A program made the translations under genes and the position numbers. This document shows, one piece after another, positions 10,380 through 15,221 of a stretch of DNA of 32,000 nucleotides. How positions within the stretch are numbered: the first letter of the stretch is position 1; each line of letters opens with the position of its first letter. The notes beneath the pieces are model-generated. The model saw nothing but the letters and a program-made list of their open reading frames with translations. It did no database searches and was not told the origin of the DNA. Origin of the DNA: Stellaceae bacterium (GTDB taxonomy: Bacteria > Pseudomonadota > Alphaproteobacteria > ATCC43930 > CGMCC-115725); contig DASYXG010000465.1 of the NCBI GenBank assembly GCA_035935235.1, positions 1 through 32,000 on the forward strand, in the 5' to 3' direction.

Positions 10380-10491
10380 TGCCGGCATTGCTCCGCGCGG
10401 TTTGCGTTGCAGATTGCAAAAAGTTCGACGCCTAAACGCTCGAGTGGTTGCCGCTATATAGCAAAAACAACCCTTTAACCATGATCCGGTG

Positions 10492-10508
10492 CTGGCACGA
10501 GGCTTGAT
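10492..10508 (+). promoter_or_regulatory. Sigma-54-like -24/-12 element
   Basis: CTGGCACGAGGCTTGAT compared with the consensus YTGGCACGR-N3-TTGCW. The only mismatch is the C of the -12 GC, which is A here. It lies 49 nt upstream of ATG 10557. Confidence 0.25.
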
Positions 10509-10556: not shown

Positions 10557-10790
10557 ATGCTTAACACCGAGATTGAGATCGAACGTCTCGCCATGGCGAT
10601 GATGGAACGGCATGGGGTTGGCGCGGCGAAGGCCGCGGTAGCCCGGCTCAACCAGATGATCGATCGAGGCGACCGCGACGGGATGGAGCGTTGGGCCTGC
10701 GTCGTGAGCCTTATCCACCGCAGCCAGGGCGCCGGACCGGCGTTTGCCGGCAATGCGCAAAATTCCGCCGGACCCGCGCGCTCCGTCTGA
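10557..10790 (+). CDS. Hypothetical 77-aa helical protein
   Basis: GGAGG at 10544-10548 lies 8 nt upstream of the ATG. Product MLNTEIEIERLAMAMMERHGVGAAKAAVARLNQMIDRGDRDGMERWACVV.... It resembles small conserved alphaproteobacterial hypotheticals, but I cannot name a family. Confidence 0.5.
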   Translation: MLNTEIEIERLAMAMMERHGVGAAKAAVARLNQMIDRGDRDGMERWACVVSLIHRSQGAGPAFAGNAQNSAGPARSV

Positions 10791-10920
10791 GCTCGGCTCG
10801 CTACACAATCTGATATAGGTTCGGCGGGGCCGCGCACCGCGGTTTCGCAAGCGCGCGCTATCGTCGCTGCGGGTCGGTTGTGATTTACTGCGGCGACCGC
10901 GATCGGCCGGGCATACGCGC

Positions 10921-12288
10921 ATGAACCATCTCTGTTTTGTCTTGATGCCGTTCGGGCAAAAGCGCCACGAATTGGGTCACATCATCGATTTCGACGCGGT
11001 CTACAAGGACATGATTGCGCCGGCGATTGCGGCGGCGAACCTCGAGCCGATCCGCGCCGATGAGGAGCGGGTTGGCGGGGCCATCCACAAGCCGATGTTC
11101 GAGCGCCTGCTGCTTTGCGAATATGCTGTCGCCGACCTGACCGGGGCCAACCCAAACGTCTATTACGAGCTCGGCGTTCGGCATGCCCGTCGCCCGCACA
11201 GCACGGTTCTGCTGTTTTGCGAGGGGACCAAGCTGCCGTTCGACATCGCGCTCCTGCGCGGCATGTACTACGGCATCGATGAGAAGGGTGCGCCGAGCAC
11301 GGTAGCCAAATCCGCCACGACCGCCGCGATCACCGAGCAACTCAAGGAAATGCGGACCAATCCGCATGACGACAGTCCCGTTTATCAGCTGATTGGTGGC
11401 CTATCGCGCGATCAAGTTGGCCACGAGAGTACCGACATTTTCCGCAAGCAGGCCGAGTATGCGCGCGAGGTCAAAGACAAACTCGCTGCTGCTCGCGACA
11501 AAGGCGCTGGCGCGCTCGCGGCGATCGAGGAAATCGCTACGAAGCCGGGGATGCGGCTCCTCAACGAGGTTGAGACCGGCGTCATCATCGACTTGATGCT
11601 GTCCTATCGGGCGGTCAGCGCGTGGGACAAGATCATTGAACTCTATCAACGCATGCCAAAACCGCTGCAGCTGACGACGATGGTGCAGGAGCAATACGCC
11701 CTCGCTCTCAACCGCGACAAGCGGGGCGACGAGGCCGAACGCGTCCTCGTCAATCTGATTAAGGAACGCGGGCCCAGCAGCGAGACCAATGGCATTCTCG
11801 GCCGGATCTACAAGGATCGCTGGGACGCGGCACAGAAAGCGAATGAAAAATTCCGCGCGGCGGGCGAGCTAAAGAAGGCGATCGACGCCTATATGGCCGG
11901 GTTTGAAGCCGATTGGCGCGATCCTTATCCCGGGATCAATGCCTGCACGCTGATGGAAATGCAGGACAAGCCCGACCCGCGGCAAAAGGACATTCTGCCA
12001 GTTGTGCGCTATGCGGCGTTGCGGCGGGCGCAACGGCCCACGGCTGATTACTGGGATCAGGCGACAATGCTGGAACTAGCGGTTCTGGCCGAGGATCAAG
12101 ACGAGGCGTTCACCTGGGCGGGCAATGCGGTCGCGGCAGTCCGAGAGGGATGGGAAGCGAAGACCACCAAGCGCAACCTAGCGTTGATCCGTCAGCGCCG
12201 CGAGGCGCGTGGCGAGGACGCTGCCTGGATCGCCGAAGTAGAAGAGGAATTGCAGAAGGCCGCCGATCGCAAGAATACAAGCGGCTAA
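10921..12288 (+). CDS. Fusion protein: N-terminal NDT/DNPH1-like (deoxyribosyltransferase/N-glycosidase-type Rossmannoid) domain plus C-terminal DUF4071/ASK-type helical-repeat domain
   Basis: 455-aa ORF. N-terminal motifs are HLCFVLMPFG and ADLTGANPNVYYELGVRHA (Glu83, codon 11167-11169). C-terminal motifs are GILGRIYKDRW and DPYPGINACTLM in a long helical region. The domain calls come from motif memory, not a search. Confidence 0.7.
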   Translation: MNHLCFVLMPFGQKRHELGHIIDFDAVYKDMIAPAIAAANLEPIRADEERVGGAIHKPMFERLLLCEYAVADLTGANPNVYYELGVRHARRPHSTVLLFCEGTKLPFDIALLRGMYYGIDEKGAPSTVAKSATTAAITEQLKEMRTNPHDDSPVYQLIGGLSRDQVGHESTDIFRKQAEYAREVKDKLAAARDKGAGALAAIEEIATKPGMRLLNEVETGVIIDLMLSYRAVSAWDKIIELYQRMPKPLQLTTMVQEQYALALNRDKRGDEAERVLVNLIKERGPSSETNGILGRIYKDRWDAAQKANEKFRAAGELKKAIDAYMAGFEADWRDPYPGINACTLMEMQDKPDPRQKDILPVVRYAALRRAQRPTADYWDQATMLELAVLAEDQDEAFTWAGNAVAAVREGWEAKTTKRNLALIRQRREARGEDAAWIAEVEEELQKAADRKNTSG

Positions 12289-12391
12289 CCCGCCGATCTT
12301 CGGCGACTTGACCCAGATCAACGCCCCGGTTTCGTCGCAATGTTACTTGGCCCATGTGCCCCACAGGGTACGCGGGCAGATTGGACAAGCG

Positions 12392-13504
12392 ATGGAAGAT
12401 GGCTTTCGTTTTGCTGACGAGCTTGGACCGCTAAAGCTCGTTTACATCTGGCGTCCCGCGGTCGGGCTGAAGGCTGTTGTGGCGGTCGACAACATCGCCT
12501 GCGGACCCGCGGTTGGCGGTGTCCGCATGGCGCCGGATGTGAGCGCCGAGGAAGCGTTTCGTCTGGCGCGCGCTATGACCCTCAAGAATGCCGCCGCAGG
12601 TCTCCCGCATGGCGGTGGTAAATCCGTCATCTTCGCCGACCCGAAGGTGCCGCGCAGCGATAAGGAGCGATTGATCCGAGCTTTTGCGGCGGCAATTGCC
12701 GATCTCGTCGAATACATACCGGGACCCGATATGGGCACCGACGAATTGGCGATGGGTTGGATCAAGGATGAAACCGGCCGGGCGGTGGGGTTGCCTCGCG
12801 TGCTCGGTGGCATTCCGCTCGACGAGATCGGTGCGACGGGATTTGGTCTCGTCTCAGCGATTGAGGTGGCGGCCGAGCGCCTAGGAATGGCATTGAAGGG
12901 GGCCCGCATCGCAGTTCAGGGCTTCGGGTCGGTTGGCAAGCACGCCGCCCGGCTGCTCGCCGAAAAGGGCGCGGTGCTGGTCGGTGCCAGCGATACGCAG
13001 GGGACGGTAGCGGACGACCACGGGCTCGATGTGGCGGCGCTGATCGCGCTTAAGGAGGCGGGGCATTCCCTTGGCGACTATCCTGCCGGCCGTAAGCTCG
13101 ATCGTGACGCCGTCATCGAGATCCCGTGCGATATTTGGATCCCAGCAGCGCGGCCTGACGTGATTCACGCGGGCAATGTCGATCGCCTAAACACACGCCT
13201 TGTTGCCCAAGGCGCCAATATCCCGTGCACTCCGGAAGCTGAAGAAGCGCTGGCGCGCCGTGATGTGCTCGTCTTGCCGGATTTTATCGCCAACGCCGGC
13301 GGGGTCATATGCGCTGCGGTCGAGTATCGGGGCGGGACGGAGGCCGTGGCTTTCGCCACGATCGATGAAAAAATTCGCACCAACATGGCCGCCGTTCTCG
13401 ATCAGGCGAAAAAGCAGAGTATTCTGCCGCGCACGGCCGCTATCGCGCTTGCGAAATCCCGCGTCGAGCGCGCTATGCAAACGCGGCGCTGGGAACGCAT
13501 TTGA
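12392..13504 (+). CDS. Glu/Leu/Phe/Val dehydrogenase family protein (small glutamate dehydrogenase type)
   Basis: 370 aa from the ATG at 12392. It has GPAVGGVRM, the catalytic-Lys motif LPHGGGKSVIFADP, and the Rossmann motif VQGFGSVGKHAA. The TTG at 12308 in the track would add a non-conserved 28-aa leader. Confidence 0.88.
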   Translation: MEDGFRFADELGPLKLVYIWRPAVGLKAVVAVDNIACGPAVGGVRMAPDVSAEEAFRLARAMTLKNAAAGLPHGGGKSVIFADPKVPRSDKERLIRAFAAAIADLVEYIPGPDMGTDELAMGWIKDETGRAVGLPRVLGGIPLDEIGATGFGLVSAIEVAAERLGMALKGARIAVQGFGSVGKHAARLLAEKGAVLVGASDTQGTVADDHGLDVAALIALKEAGHSLGDYPAGRKLDRDAVIEIPCDIWIPAARPDVIHAGNVDRLNTRLVAQGANIPCTPEAEEALARRDVLVLPDFIANAGGVICAAVEYRGGTEAVAFATIDEKIRTNMAAVLDQAKKQSILPRTAAIALAKSRVERAMQTRRWERI

Positions 13505-13515
13505 TAAGGGTGGAG

Positions 13516-13593
13516 TGGGGCGAGTGATGGGATTCGAACCCACGACATCCAGATCCACAATCTGGCGCTCTAACCGACTGAGCTACACCCGCC
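13516..13593 (-). tRNA. tRNA-His (GTG), with encoded G-1 and 3' CCA
   Basis: Hand-folded cloverleaf. Acceptor GCGGGTG/CACTCGC, D arm GCTC/GAGC, anticodon stem CCAGA/TCTGG with loop TTGTGGA, T arm GTGGG-TTCGAAT-CCCAT. An extra 5' G sits opposite C73. Confidence 0.9.
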
Positions 13594-13727: not shown

Positions 13728-15221
13728 ATGACGATTTCATCTTCAGGTTGGACGCGCCATGCGCTGCTGACACCGCAGCAAATGGGCGAGGCCGATCGGC
13801 TTACCGTTGCTAGTGGGGTCTCCGGTATCTTCCTGATGGAAAATGCCGGACGTGCGGTAGCCGACGCGGCCTCGCGCCGTTTCGCGCTACGTCCGGTCGC
13901 GGTGCTGTGCGGGCCGGGTAACAATGGCGGCGATGGGTTTGTTGCCGCGCGCATCCTCGCGGAACGCGGCTGGCCGGTGCGATTGGCGTTACTCGGCGAC
14001 CGCGCTGCGCTGAAGGGCGATGCCGGCGCCGCCGCTGCGCGCTGGCCGGGAAGGGTCGAGACGCTGAGCAGGGCTATGCTCGAGGGGGCCGGACTTGTTA
14101 TCGACGCGTTGTTTGGTGCTGGGCTGGCGCGGCCGATCGAGGGCGTGGCTGCTGATCTCATCTTGGCGCTCAATAAGCAGGGTATTCCGGTCGTTGCCGT
14201 TGACGTCCCGAGTGGCGTCGACGGGGCAAGCGGTCAAATCCGGGGTGTTGCACCAAAGGCCGCGCTGACCGTGACCTTCTTCCGGCGCAAGCCGGGGCAT
14301 CTGCTGCTGCCCGGCCGGGTTTGTTGCGGCGAGACGATCGTCGCACCGATCGGTATCGAACCGCCGGTGTTGGGCCACATCGCACCCGACACGGCGGTTA
14401 ATCACCCTGCGTGGTGGTCAGATCGATTTCCGTGGCCCGATCCTGCCAGCCATAAATACTCGCGCGGCCATGCGCTGATTGCGGGCGGCGCGGTAATGAC
14501 CGGAGCGGCGCGGCTCGCGGCTCGCGGCGCGGCTCGAGTGGGCACTGGATTGGTTACGGTGGCGGCGCCTGAGGCAGCATTCCCTATTTATGCGTCGGCT
14601 CTAACCGGAGTCATCGTGCAACCAACTGCCGGTCTGAACGATTTCGAAGCATTACTCTCCGATCGGCGGCGCAATGCGGCACTGGTCGGGCCTGGCGCCG
14701 GGCTCGGCGCGGAGACGCGCGATAGGGTCTTGGCGATATTCGCCGCGAGCAAGGCGACGGTGATCGATGCCGATGCGCTGAGCGTTTTCGCCGACGATCC
14801 GGCGACCTTGCTGGACGCGGTACGCGCGCCTTGCGTGATGACACCGCACGAGGGCGAGTTCGCGCGGCTCTTCGATACTGCGGGGAGCAAGCTCGATCGT
14901 GCCCGGAGAGCGGCGCAGCAGAGCGGCGCGGTGGTTCTCCTTAAGGGGCCCGACACCGTGATAGGCGCGCCCGACGGGCGCGCCGCCATCAATGAGAACG
15001 CGCCGCCGACGCTGGCGACTGCCGGCTCTGGTGATGTGCTGGCGGGGATCGTGCTCGGACTGCTCGCGCAAGGCATGCCGCCCTTCGAAGCAGCCGCGGC
15101 GGCCGTTTGGCTGCACGGTGAGGCGGCGCACCGTTTCGGCGTCGGGCTTGTTGCCGAAGACTTGATCGAAGCGCTTCCAGCGGCGCTGTCCAATCTGAAA
15201 CAATCGGCATTTTACGGATGA
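13728..15221 (+). CDS. nnr: Bifunctional NAD(P)H-hydrate repair enzyme (epimerase / ADP-dependent dehydratase)
   Basis: 497-aa ORF. YjeF_N motif CGPGNNGGDGFVAAR. C-terminal carbohydrate-kinase-like domain with AGSGDVLAG. Confidence 0.9.
   Translation: MTISSSGWTRHALLTPQQMGEADRLTVASGVSGIFLMENAGRAVADAASRRFALRPVAVLCGPGNNGGDGFVAARILAERGWPVRLALLGDRAALKGDAGAAAARWPGRVETLSRAMLEGAGLVIDALFGAGLARPIEGVAADLILALNKQGIPVVAVDVPSGVDGASGQIRGVAPKAALTVTFFRRKPGHLLLPGRVCCGETIVAPIGIEPPVLGHIAPDTAVNHPAWWSDRFPWPDPASHKYSRGHALIAGGAVMTGAARLAARGAARVGTGLVTVAAPEAAFPIYASALTGVIVQPTAGLNDFEALLSDRRRNAALVGPGAGLGAETRDRVLAIFAASKATVIDADALSVFADDPATLLDAVRAPCVMTPHEGEFARLFDTAGSKLDRARRAAQQSGAVVLLKGPDTVIGAPDGRAAINENAPPTLATAGSGDVLAGIVLGLLAQGMPPFEAAAAAVWLHGEAAHRFGVGLVAEDLIEALPAALSNLKQSAFYG

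Follow-up and report, generated by a model that had tools for sequence, protein, structure and literature searches.

A ThsI-like protein with a predicted N-glycosidase domain and an ASK-like TPR-S sensor, encoded without a TIR partner in the core chromosome of a Stellaceae bacterium

Main finding

We analyzed a 32,000-nucleotide stretch of DNA from a Stellaceae bacterium (contig DASYXG010000465.1, positions 1 to 32,000 of the forward strand; this whole stretch is called the window in the following), with the focus on a gene for a two-domain protein of 455 amino acids, here termed the target. Judged from its sequence, the encoded protein is a homologue of ThsI, the effector of type VIII Thoeris systems, and falls within a separate, more ASK-like 'long' clade of these proteins. 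The gene belongs to a known, annotated family in an understudied orphan arrangement, and it does not represent a new kind of system. Our preferred explanation, to which we give a probability of about 0.5, is that the target encodes an orphan long-form ThsI homologue acting as a ligand-gated N-glycosidase of NAD+ or a nucleotide, which would answer a signal of the cyclic ADP-ribose (cADPR) type made elsewhere in the genome.

In such a mechanism, a nucleotide of the cyclic-ADP-ribose type would be the ligand of the C-terminal TPR-S solenoid, and its binding would lead to release or assembly of the N-terminal TIR/MilB-like domain. There, Glu83 together with Asn77 and Asn79 would cleave NAD+ or a nucleotide at its N-glycosidic bond, with growth arrest as the outcome. 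Since there is no TIR gene in cis, the trigger would have to be supplied in trans, by a TIR or comparable enzyme whose gene lies at another place in the genome. The direct support obtained here consists of the domain architecture, the fold class, the invariant residues, the homology to TIR-linked ThsI and the absence of a partner gene from the window.

The target is a constrained gene for a two-domain protein

The open reading frame (ORF) begins with an ATG and spans exactly 10921..12288 on the forward strand. Its product is 100% identical to a database entry named 'TRAFs-binding domain-containing protein [Stellaceae bacterium]' and has more than 6,500 homologues at E<=1e-3, mostly of 445-470 amino acids and 57-60% identical. 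The ratio of non-synonymous to synonymous substitution rates (dN/dS) against two relatives was 0.048-0.062, compared with 0.056-0.078 for gyrA in the same loci. On the basis of the identical record, the homologues and the dN/dS values the target is a genuine gene, constrained like gyrA. The sequence motifs quoted in a preliminary description of this DNA were all found in their places: HLCFVLMPFG at residues 3-12, ADLTGANPNVYYELGVRHA at residues 71-89 with its Glu as residue 83, STVLLF at residues 94-99, GILGRIYKDRW at residues 291-301 and DPYPGINACTLM at residues 334-345. The features of the target are:

10921..12288, forward strand: complete coding sequence of 455 amino acids, ThsI-like or 'TRAFs-binding domain-containing' protein (ORF call, 100%-identical record, >6,500 homologues, dN/dS 0.048-0.062)
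10921..11370, forward strand: N-terminal Rossmann-like beta-alpha domain (residues 1-150) of the TIR, MilB, DNPH1 and nucleoside 2-deoxyribosyltransferase (NDT) fold class, predicted N-glycosidase (AlphaFold2, Foldseek, PADLOC)
11149..11169, forward strand: predicted active-site motif N77-P78-N79-V-Y-Y-E83 (invariance in the clade and in TIR-linked ThsI; spacing as in BcTpr)
11158..12216, forward strand: span of PF13281, MAP3K_TRAF_bd or DUF4071 (residues 80-432), beginning within the N-terminal domain (Pfam, 138.8 bits)
11371..11439, forward strand: inter-domain linker (residues 151-173), opening with D151-S152-P153 (predicted local distance difference test score, pLDDT, <50 at residues 152-173; conserved DSP)
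11620..11955, forward strand: TPR-S sensor repeats (residues 234-345) inside an all-helical C-terminal solenoid (residues ~172-453; PF20308, AlphaFold2, match to 5ulm)

The C-terminal part had been assigned to the DUF4071 or MAP3K TRAF-binding family, and this assignment was borne out by profiles and structures alike. PF13281 (gathering threshold 24.1 bits) matched with E=3.1e-40 and covered profile positions 1-355 of 371, and PF20308 (TPR-S, for TPR-Sensor; gathering threshold 27.6 bits) scored 96.4 bits (E=1.7e-27). In the PDB, ASK1 (8qgy, 5ulm) was the sole significant sequence match. ASK1 was also the top Foldseek match of the full-length AlphaFold2 model, which had a mean pLDDT of 82.9 and values of mostly 83-97 in the helical C-terminal region. 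The alignment to 8qgy (E=1e-8) extended over ~450 columns spanning both domains, and the central regulatory region of ASK1 in 5ulm (E=2e-6) was matched with a root-mean-square deviation of 3.4 Å over 259 columns. No kinase Pfam domain was found in the 455-amino-acid protein, which ends after the helical domain, so it is not an ASK-type MAP3K.

The N-terminal 150 residues matched no Pfam family. When they were modelled separately by AlphaFold2 (pLDDT 85) and compared by Foldseek, the TIR domain of TIR-STING was the best match (E=3e-5, template modelling score, TM, 0.63-0.67), followed by MilB (4jem, E=3.6e-4), DNPH1 (8rpt, E=1.1e-3), NDT (E=1.2e-3; TM 0.5-0.6 for MilB, DNPH1 and NDT) and the N-terminal domain of ASK1 (E=1.3e-3), all of them at a similar level (TM 0.5-0.67). 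The PADLOC 'TIR effector' model PDLC00733 matched residues 53-117 (64 residues) at 7e-10. Among the family models, those for NDT, DNPH1 or MilB (PF05014 class) in Pfam and NCBIfam gave no match to the window protein at E<=1 and the TIR models PF13676 and PF01582 none at threshold; the best Pfam TIR-type score, that of PF10137 (CAP12-PCTIR_TIR), was below threshold with E=0.099 and 13.1 bits against a cut-off of 24.7 bits. Thus, the NDT/DNPH1/TIR-like character proposed earlier for the N-terminus appears right at the level of the modelled fold, at which the TIR and NDT branches are not distinguished by the search, and was not recovered at the level of Pfam NDT or TIR models. When the N-terminal 140 amino acids alone were used as a query, nearly all matches were fragments of this family, and no new architecture came up. 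Altogether, the profile and structure comparisons, among them the proposed ones with DNPH1 and ASK1, support the two-domain architecture and the idea of a nucleotide-centred sensor-effector put forward in the preliminary description.

Predicted active site and conserved residues

A genome scan returned at least 575 matching stretches, and the clade counts given here and below were taken on the best 80 loci. N77, N79 and E83 were invariant in all 80 clade members and P78 was present in 75; the same three residues are invariant in TIR-linked ThsI proteins as well. At the beginning of the linker, D151 was kept in 79/80 and S152 and P153 in 80/80 each, with DSP again invariant in TIR-linked ThsI. 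The invariants common to the window protein and ThsI comprise, in the N-terminal domain and linker, M9, G12, K14, R45, D47, E48, D72, N77, N79, Y82-E83-L84-G85, R87-H88-A89, F107-D108 and D151-S152-P153 and, in the TPR-S part, E288-T289, G294, K298, Y324, G327, Y336, G338, N340, W378 and A381-T382. The N-terminal fold resembles MilB and DNPH1, and the invariant E83 may hold the place of their catalytic Glu.

The closest solved structures are those of ASK1, in which the N-terminal domain is a binding platform, and the bacterial protein might accordingly be a catalytically dead scaffold as in the animal ASK kinases, engaged in protein-protein interactions only. However, ASK1 reads Q-P-S...Y-H-L-G where the window protein reads N-P-N...Y-E-L-G, with His at the position of the Glu, so that a catalytic-type Glu is retained in the bacterial protein and absent from ASK1. 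Furthermore, the invariance of N77, N79 and E83 is the pattern of an active site rather than of a degenerate one, and the protein has no kinase or other output domain. A dead scaffold is hence very improbable.

Relatives in TIR-dependent immune signalling

The family was predicted computationally between 2015 and 2020 and has since been linked by two preprints to TIR/cADPR immune signalling. The predictions for DRHyd, TPR-S and ASK reportedly originate from Burroughs et al. 2015 (Nucleic Acids Research, NAR).

In type VIII Thoeris, the TIR protein makes canonical cADPR only upon infection, and the effector ThsI, described as 'CMP hydrolase and TPR', is toxic specifically with cADPR; its TPR region is the domain predicted by Aravind's group to sense TIR signals. 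The effector of type VII Thoeris is a SLATT protein (ThsH), and certain operons carry both ThsH and ThsI (all bioRxiv 10.64898/2025.12.03.692087). The second relative, BcTpr of B. cereus, is a protein of 415 amino acids with an N-terminal MilB-like glycosidase and a C-terminal TPR domain, whose gene adjoins that of BcTir. BcTpr consumes NAD+ and yields a cADPR isomer; it binds cADPR with a dissociation constant of 1.9 uM, and this binding precedes that of NAD+. Both NADase activity and defence were abolished in the variants N82A and E86A, E86 being the equivalent of MilB E103 (Liu et al., bioRxiv 10.1101/2023.05.26.542521). Proteins of this kind are thus already characterised through ThsI and BcTpr, and the label 'uncharacterised' given to the target in the preliminary description no longer holds. 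For the window protein itself, cADPR-triggered toxicity and Asn/Glu-dependent NADase activity would follow by analogy to these relatives, the only proteins for which they are described, in preprints, and its ligand, substrate, gating, in-trans signal source and defence role are inferred too.

The work on BcTpr suggests another reading, in which the target would be sensor, producer and effector in one: the N-terminal domain would make a cADPR isomer from NAD+, and feedback through TPR-S would then lead to full NAD+ depletion. Such behaviour was reported for BcTpr alone, including the binding of cADPR before NAD+, and the effector alone is the commonest arrangement, with 29/78 operons in the survey by Liu et al. 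(bioRxiv 10.1101/2023.05.26.542521); a TIR NADase domain as the best N-terminal fold match points in the same direction. On the other hand, BcTpr alone gave no phage protection and required BcTir for defence (bioRxiv 10.1101/2023.05.26.542521), the later systematic study assigned signal production to the TIR and the role of a responder to ThsI (bioRxiv 10.64898/2025.12.03.692087), and a constitutive NADase is hard to square with stable carriage at a core locus. We consider a self-contained enzyme of this type distinctly unlikely.

The orphan ThsI explanation draws on copies of the family that do stand beside TIR genes. A tblastn search against plasmids yielded 73 records with family matches. 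The plasmids pA7J1 from Pseudomonas and an IncP plasmid from E. coli both have TIR genes after a gene for a 'TRAFs-binding domain-containing protein'; in the IncP case there is in addition a gene of the DUF4231 family, which Pfam resolves as SLATT for the related rhizobial copy. On a Pediococcus plasmid, the gene for the TPR protein has a TIR gene on either side. With the sequences from Table S1 of bioRxiv 10.64898/2025.12.03.692087 as TIR references, identity to validated type VIII TIRs was 75.6% for the TIR of pA7J1 (against that of the Pseudomonas scaffold) and 56% for the IncP TIR (against that of Yersinia). Because of this resemblance of the adjoining TIRs, the proteins of the two plasmids can be identified, by sequence comparison, as ThsI. 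Closer to the target, Rhizobium/Agrobacterium plasmids encode copies with 49-50% identity to the window protein, flanked by TIR genes on one side and by a SLATT gene on the other.

This conserved island of the Agrobacterium / Rhizobium plasmids (L081 1457-8329 and L085 1453-9115) has further contents. One side carries TIR - QueC-like - HhH-GPD N-glycosylase/DNA lyase - large TIR protein - PfkB kinase, and the divergent side the ThsI-like gene followed by SLATT (- TIR). QueC-like denotes a 7-cyano-7-deazaguanine synthase, and the island thus combines deazaguanine and DNA-glycosylase genes with TIR and SLATT genes.

The long-form clade and its linkage to TIR genes

Compared with validated-type ThsI, the window protein and its 50-60% identical relatives have ~28 extra residues in the helical part, near the helix DLMLSYR that aligns to NLLLSYR of ASK1. 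PF13281 matched the members of this clade near end-to-end with 139-150 bits, and ThsI-type proteins only locally with 25-38 bits. The extra residues and the near-complete PF13281 match are the reasons for placing the window protein, as far as sequence comparison goes, in a separate and more ASK-like clade of ThsI homologues. The best 80 loci were nearly all from soil metagenome-assembled genomes of Alphaproteobacteria, Acidobacteriota, Actinomycetota, Nitrospirota, Planctomycetota and others. In an exhaustive representative search with the N-terminal domain, 182 clusters at 50% identity were obtained at E<=1e-30 and 15,040 at E<=1e-3.

The 80 chromosomal loci of the clade, with target copies 55-60% identical to the window protein, were searched for TIR genes within 8 kb by an iterated profile seeded with Pfam-confirmed TIRs. 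The profile converged on 16 ORFs in 11/80 loci, and in five of these (L013, L037, L050, L053, L080) the TIR gene was adjacent to the clade member. TIR-linked members were scattered among unlinked ones, L050 being 98.7% identical to L047 and L013 91% to L024, and most of the signature residues checked were invariant in 80/80, with none separating linked from unlinked members. Because of this intermixing and the lack of a separating residue, the protein looks, by its sequence, biochemically alike with or without a neighbouring TIR.

A universal operon partner was rejected after clustering of all ORFs, since no accompanying gene cluster occurred in more than 26/80 loci. The recurring neighbours were lineage-specific and functionally unrelated (M43 peptidase, Ivy-like protein, alcohol dehydrogenase (ADH), aldehyde dehydrogenase, EAL protein).

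Several variants of the architecture and its context were seen in the course of this survey. In a Planctomycetota metagenome-assembled genome (L053 2194-7828), a compact chromosomal system has the order SLATT - ThsI-like - TIR - TIR-like - pYEATS-TIR, the ThsI-like protein showing 56% identity to that of the window; both cADPR-responsive effector types are joined here with several TIRs and a prokaryotic YEATS domain. In P0340 (755 amino acids), a long form carries a DUF4231/SLATT membrane domain as a C-terminal fusion, and in P0268 (1161 amino acids), P0311 (827 amino acids) and P0331 (1409 amino acids) a single TPR-S is preceded by two or three N-terminal domains. Temperate phages of Streptococcus, Staphylococcus and Dorea encode the N-terminal glycosidase-like domain on its own, without TPR-S (30-37% identity over residues ~5-147); it was seen in Streptococcus prophage 315.2 (L088 2459-3238, SpyM3_0974) and in 38 other phage records. 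SpyM3_0974 is a hypothetical protein of 259 amino acids encoded in the lysogeny module between repressor and cro-like genes, a typical prophage site for defence or counter-defence genes.

The target lies in a core-genome region

The genes of the window are arranged in the following order, with (-) marking the reverse strand:

Upstream part: ADH, gyrA, coaD, ZIP transporter, hpaB-like gene (-), EamA transporter, orf77, target
Middle part: ELFV dehydrogenase, tRNA-His (-), nnrE/D, malonyl-CoA decarboxylase, tRNA-Leu, tig, clpP, clpX
Downstream part: lon, tRNA-Val, tRNA-Asp, nuoC-G

The locus is core chromosome and not a defence island. Three loci with 92%-identical copies of the target keep most of this arrangement, and in a distant Stellaceae locus, with a target 62%, GyrA 84.5% and CoaD 76.6% identical to those of the window, the target is still found ~2.7 kb downstream of gyrA-coaD. 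The accessory-looking patch outside a housekeeping operon in which the preliminary description had put the gene is therefore not what we found: core genes surround it and its position is kept across Stellaceae. Likewise, the supposedly low-GC spacer around the sigma-54-like element and orf77 (GC 0.61-0.62) is not distinct from its flanks (0.62-0.65). The notion of a self-contained one-gene module needs correction too, as members of the family are usually effectors of a TIR signal, although the window copy does stand alone.

This setting, together with the published record, weighs against the orphan ThsI explanation in several respects. The target lies within core-genome synteny and is constrained like gyrA, which is unusual for defence genes. 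PADLOC models matched no neighbour in the 32-kb window, and searches by phmmer, tblastn and the iterated TIR profile gave no TIR or SLATT match in the window or in the four Stellaceae loci. A type VIII system is defined by an effector in an operon with a TIR gene, and the immediate neighbours here are orf77 and the ELFV dehydrogenase gene. Within 8 kb, 69/80 clade loci (86%), the window included, had no TIR gene according to the iterated profile. With 24-28% identity to validated-type ThsI and the ~28 extra residues, the ligand could also differ. Finally, both supporting preprints are without peer review and conflict with each other, as in one the TIR makes cADPR (10.64898/2025.12.03.692087) and in the other the effector itself is an NADase and producer of a cADPR isomer (10.1101/2023.05.26.542521).

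Many of these data would also fit a domesticated, TIR-independent enzyme or stress sensor. It would respond to an endogenous nucleotide, such as one derived from NAD+ when redox balance or nutrients are disturbed, and tune the pools of NAD+ or nucleotides, as a counterpart of the ASK module and not as an anti-phage protein. Apart from the core-genome setting without defence genes in 32 kb, the dN/dS of 0.05-0.06 and the 86% of clade loci without a TIR within 8 kb, this possibility is favoured by the adjacency to gyrA-coaD, held across Stellaceae down to a GyrA only 84.5% identical, by a mean column identity of 61% across phyla with many invariant residues along the whole length of the target, and by the ASK-derived PF13281, which the clade matches near full length and validated-type ThsI with far fewer bits. 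Against it, members 91-99% identical to unlinked ones adjoin TIR genes and no signature residue distinguishes them, and the 49-50%-identical plasmid copies are located in TIR/SLATT islands. Moreover, the patchy phylum spread at ~57-60% identity resembles horizontal transfer more than an ancient housekeeping gene, and no metabolic partner is conserved across lineages. We therefore regard a domesticated sensor as possible, yet unlikely. Extended to the clade, the idea would be that the TIR-less long forms may have left phage defence and now serve in stress or metabolic sensing under the control of an endogenous nucleotide of the ADP-ribose type, as a catalytically active counterpart of the ASK1-3 regulatory module; this we find doubtful.

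Neighbouring genes and upstream elements

The stretch with the ELFV-type amino-acid dehydrogenase gene and tRNA-His (window 12308-13592) is present in the window, L001 and L002. L003 seems to be without it and has the nnr gene right after the target, which suggests a small indel polymorphism within a core region that is syntenic in other respects. Since one 92%-identical locus is without the ELFV dehydrogenase gene, there is no fixed coupling between it and the target. Downstream of the target by 1.4 kb, a bifunctional NAD(P)H-hydrate repair gene (YjeF_N + Carb_kinase) is located at 13728-15221 on the forward strand. This NAD-related neighbour is probably coincidental, as it is not conserved beyond the closest relatives.

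The small ORF upstream of the target, orf77 (77 amino acids, 10557-10790, forward strand), is a real gene (dN/dS 0.03-0.06 in comparisons with relatives). Conservation of its product covers the first ~55 residues and extends to the distant Stellaceae locus L004 (50% identity), whereas the C-terminal tail is variable; no Pfam or PADLOC match was obtained. In the survey of homologue neighbourhoods it was found upstream of the target only in four Stellaceae loci and was thus rejected as a partner of the family. About 50 bp upstream of orf77, the sigma-54-like element TGGCACGAGGCTTGA (TGGCACG-N4-TTGA, 10493-10507, forward strand) reads TTGA where the -12 element usually has TTGC. A single sigma-54 match in the window compares with 1.2 expected by chance. 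The element is invariant in four Stellaceae loci despite variable flanks, and this conservation in relatives is the sole argument for a function; the site lies upstream of orf77 and not of the target. Both the element and the small ORF noted in the preliminary description thus exist and are conserved in Stellaceae relatives; they are lineage-specific neighbours outside the target module.

Directly upstream of the target, one further feature was found:

10856..10900, no strand assigned: conserved 45-bp non-coding block, possible promoter or operator, 21-65 bp upstream of the start codon

The block is nearly invariant in four Stellaceae loci, and the sequence upstream of it is variable with indels. 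For a riboswitch or structured RNA upstream of the target, there was no Rfam match and the stability was no better than that of shuffles (z=+1.16); sigma-70 promoter and terminator signals around the target did not exceed the shuffle expectation. A separate conserved block of ~30 bp (10391-10421), just past the EamA stop codon, holds TTGCGTTGCA(A/G)ATTGCAA with the self-complementary TTGCAA in tandem. It is kept in all four Stellaceae loci and may be bound by a regulator or be associated with a terminator.

Implications

The window locus is a clear case of the commonest yet unstudied arrangement of this family, with an intact effector, no signal-making partner, a core position and constraint at the housekeeping level. 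If such orphans respond to cADPR from TIRs encoded elsewhere, Thoeris-type signalling would work as a network across the genome rather than within closed operons, and finders that require co-location would undercount defence systems. If they respond instead to an endogenous nucleotide, they would be the closest living model for the origin of the regulatory module of animal ASK stress kinases and would offer a tractable route to asking whether the ASK TPR region binds nucleotides. The ASK central regulatory region would then be, or once have been, a nucleotide receptor.

Comparison with known systems

Like ThsI, the window protein has an N-terminal 'CMP hydrolase'/MilB-like domain followed by the TIR-associated TPR domain, aligns to the ThsI of pA7J1 over 445 amino acids with 27.6% identity (E=5e-35) and shares the signature residues of the N-terminal and TPR-S parts. 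It differs by the lack of a TIR partner in cis and by a core-genome in place of a plasmid or defence setting, and further by an identity of 24-28%, by the additional residues of the helical part, a region aligning to ASK1, and by the near-full PF13281 match, which is local in ThsI. The motif of BcTpr, I10/M11, N80-P81-N82 and E86, corresponds in composition and spacing to L8/M9, N77-P78-N79 and E83 of the window protein, an equivalence based on published residue numbers and on Firmicutes relatives (L083). Unlike the target, BcTpr (415 amino acids) is encoded beside BcTir and depends on it for defence.

With MilB, DNPH1 (Rcl) and NDT, the window protein shares the fold of residues 1-150 and a 'YELG' with an invariant Glu; it gave no Pfam NDT match, is only 12-18% identical to them and has its domain fused to a sensor. 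With respect to TIR NADases (TIR-STING, ThsB, SARM1 TIR), TIR-STING is the best fold match and the PADLOC 'TIR effector' model matches at 7e-10, whereas no Pfam TIR model reaches its threshold and the window protein falls outside the cluster of TIR genes that neighbour family members.

The regulatory module of ASK1/MAP3K5, consisting of the thioredoxin-binding domain and the central regulatory region, gave the best match in the PDB across both domains, in sequence as well as in fold, with the common helix motifs DLMLSYR (NLLLSYR in ASK1) and GRIYKD and with PF13281 covered over positions 1-355 of 371. The window protein is without the kinase, PH and SAM domains and retains the Glu and the Asn-Pro-Asn that were lost in ASK1. 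Among bacterial relatives of the ASK regulatory module that still appear catalytically competent, its clade looks, by these residues, like the closest.

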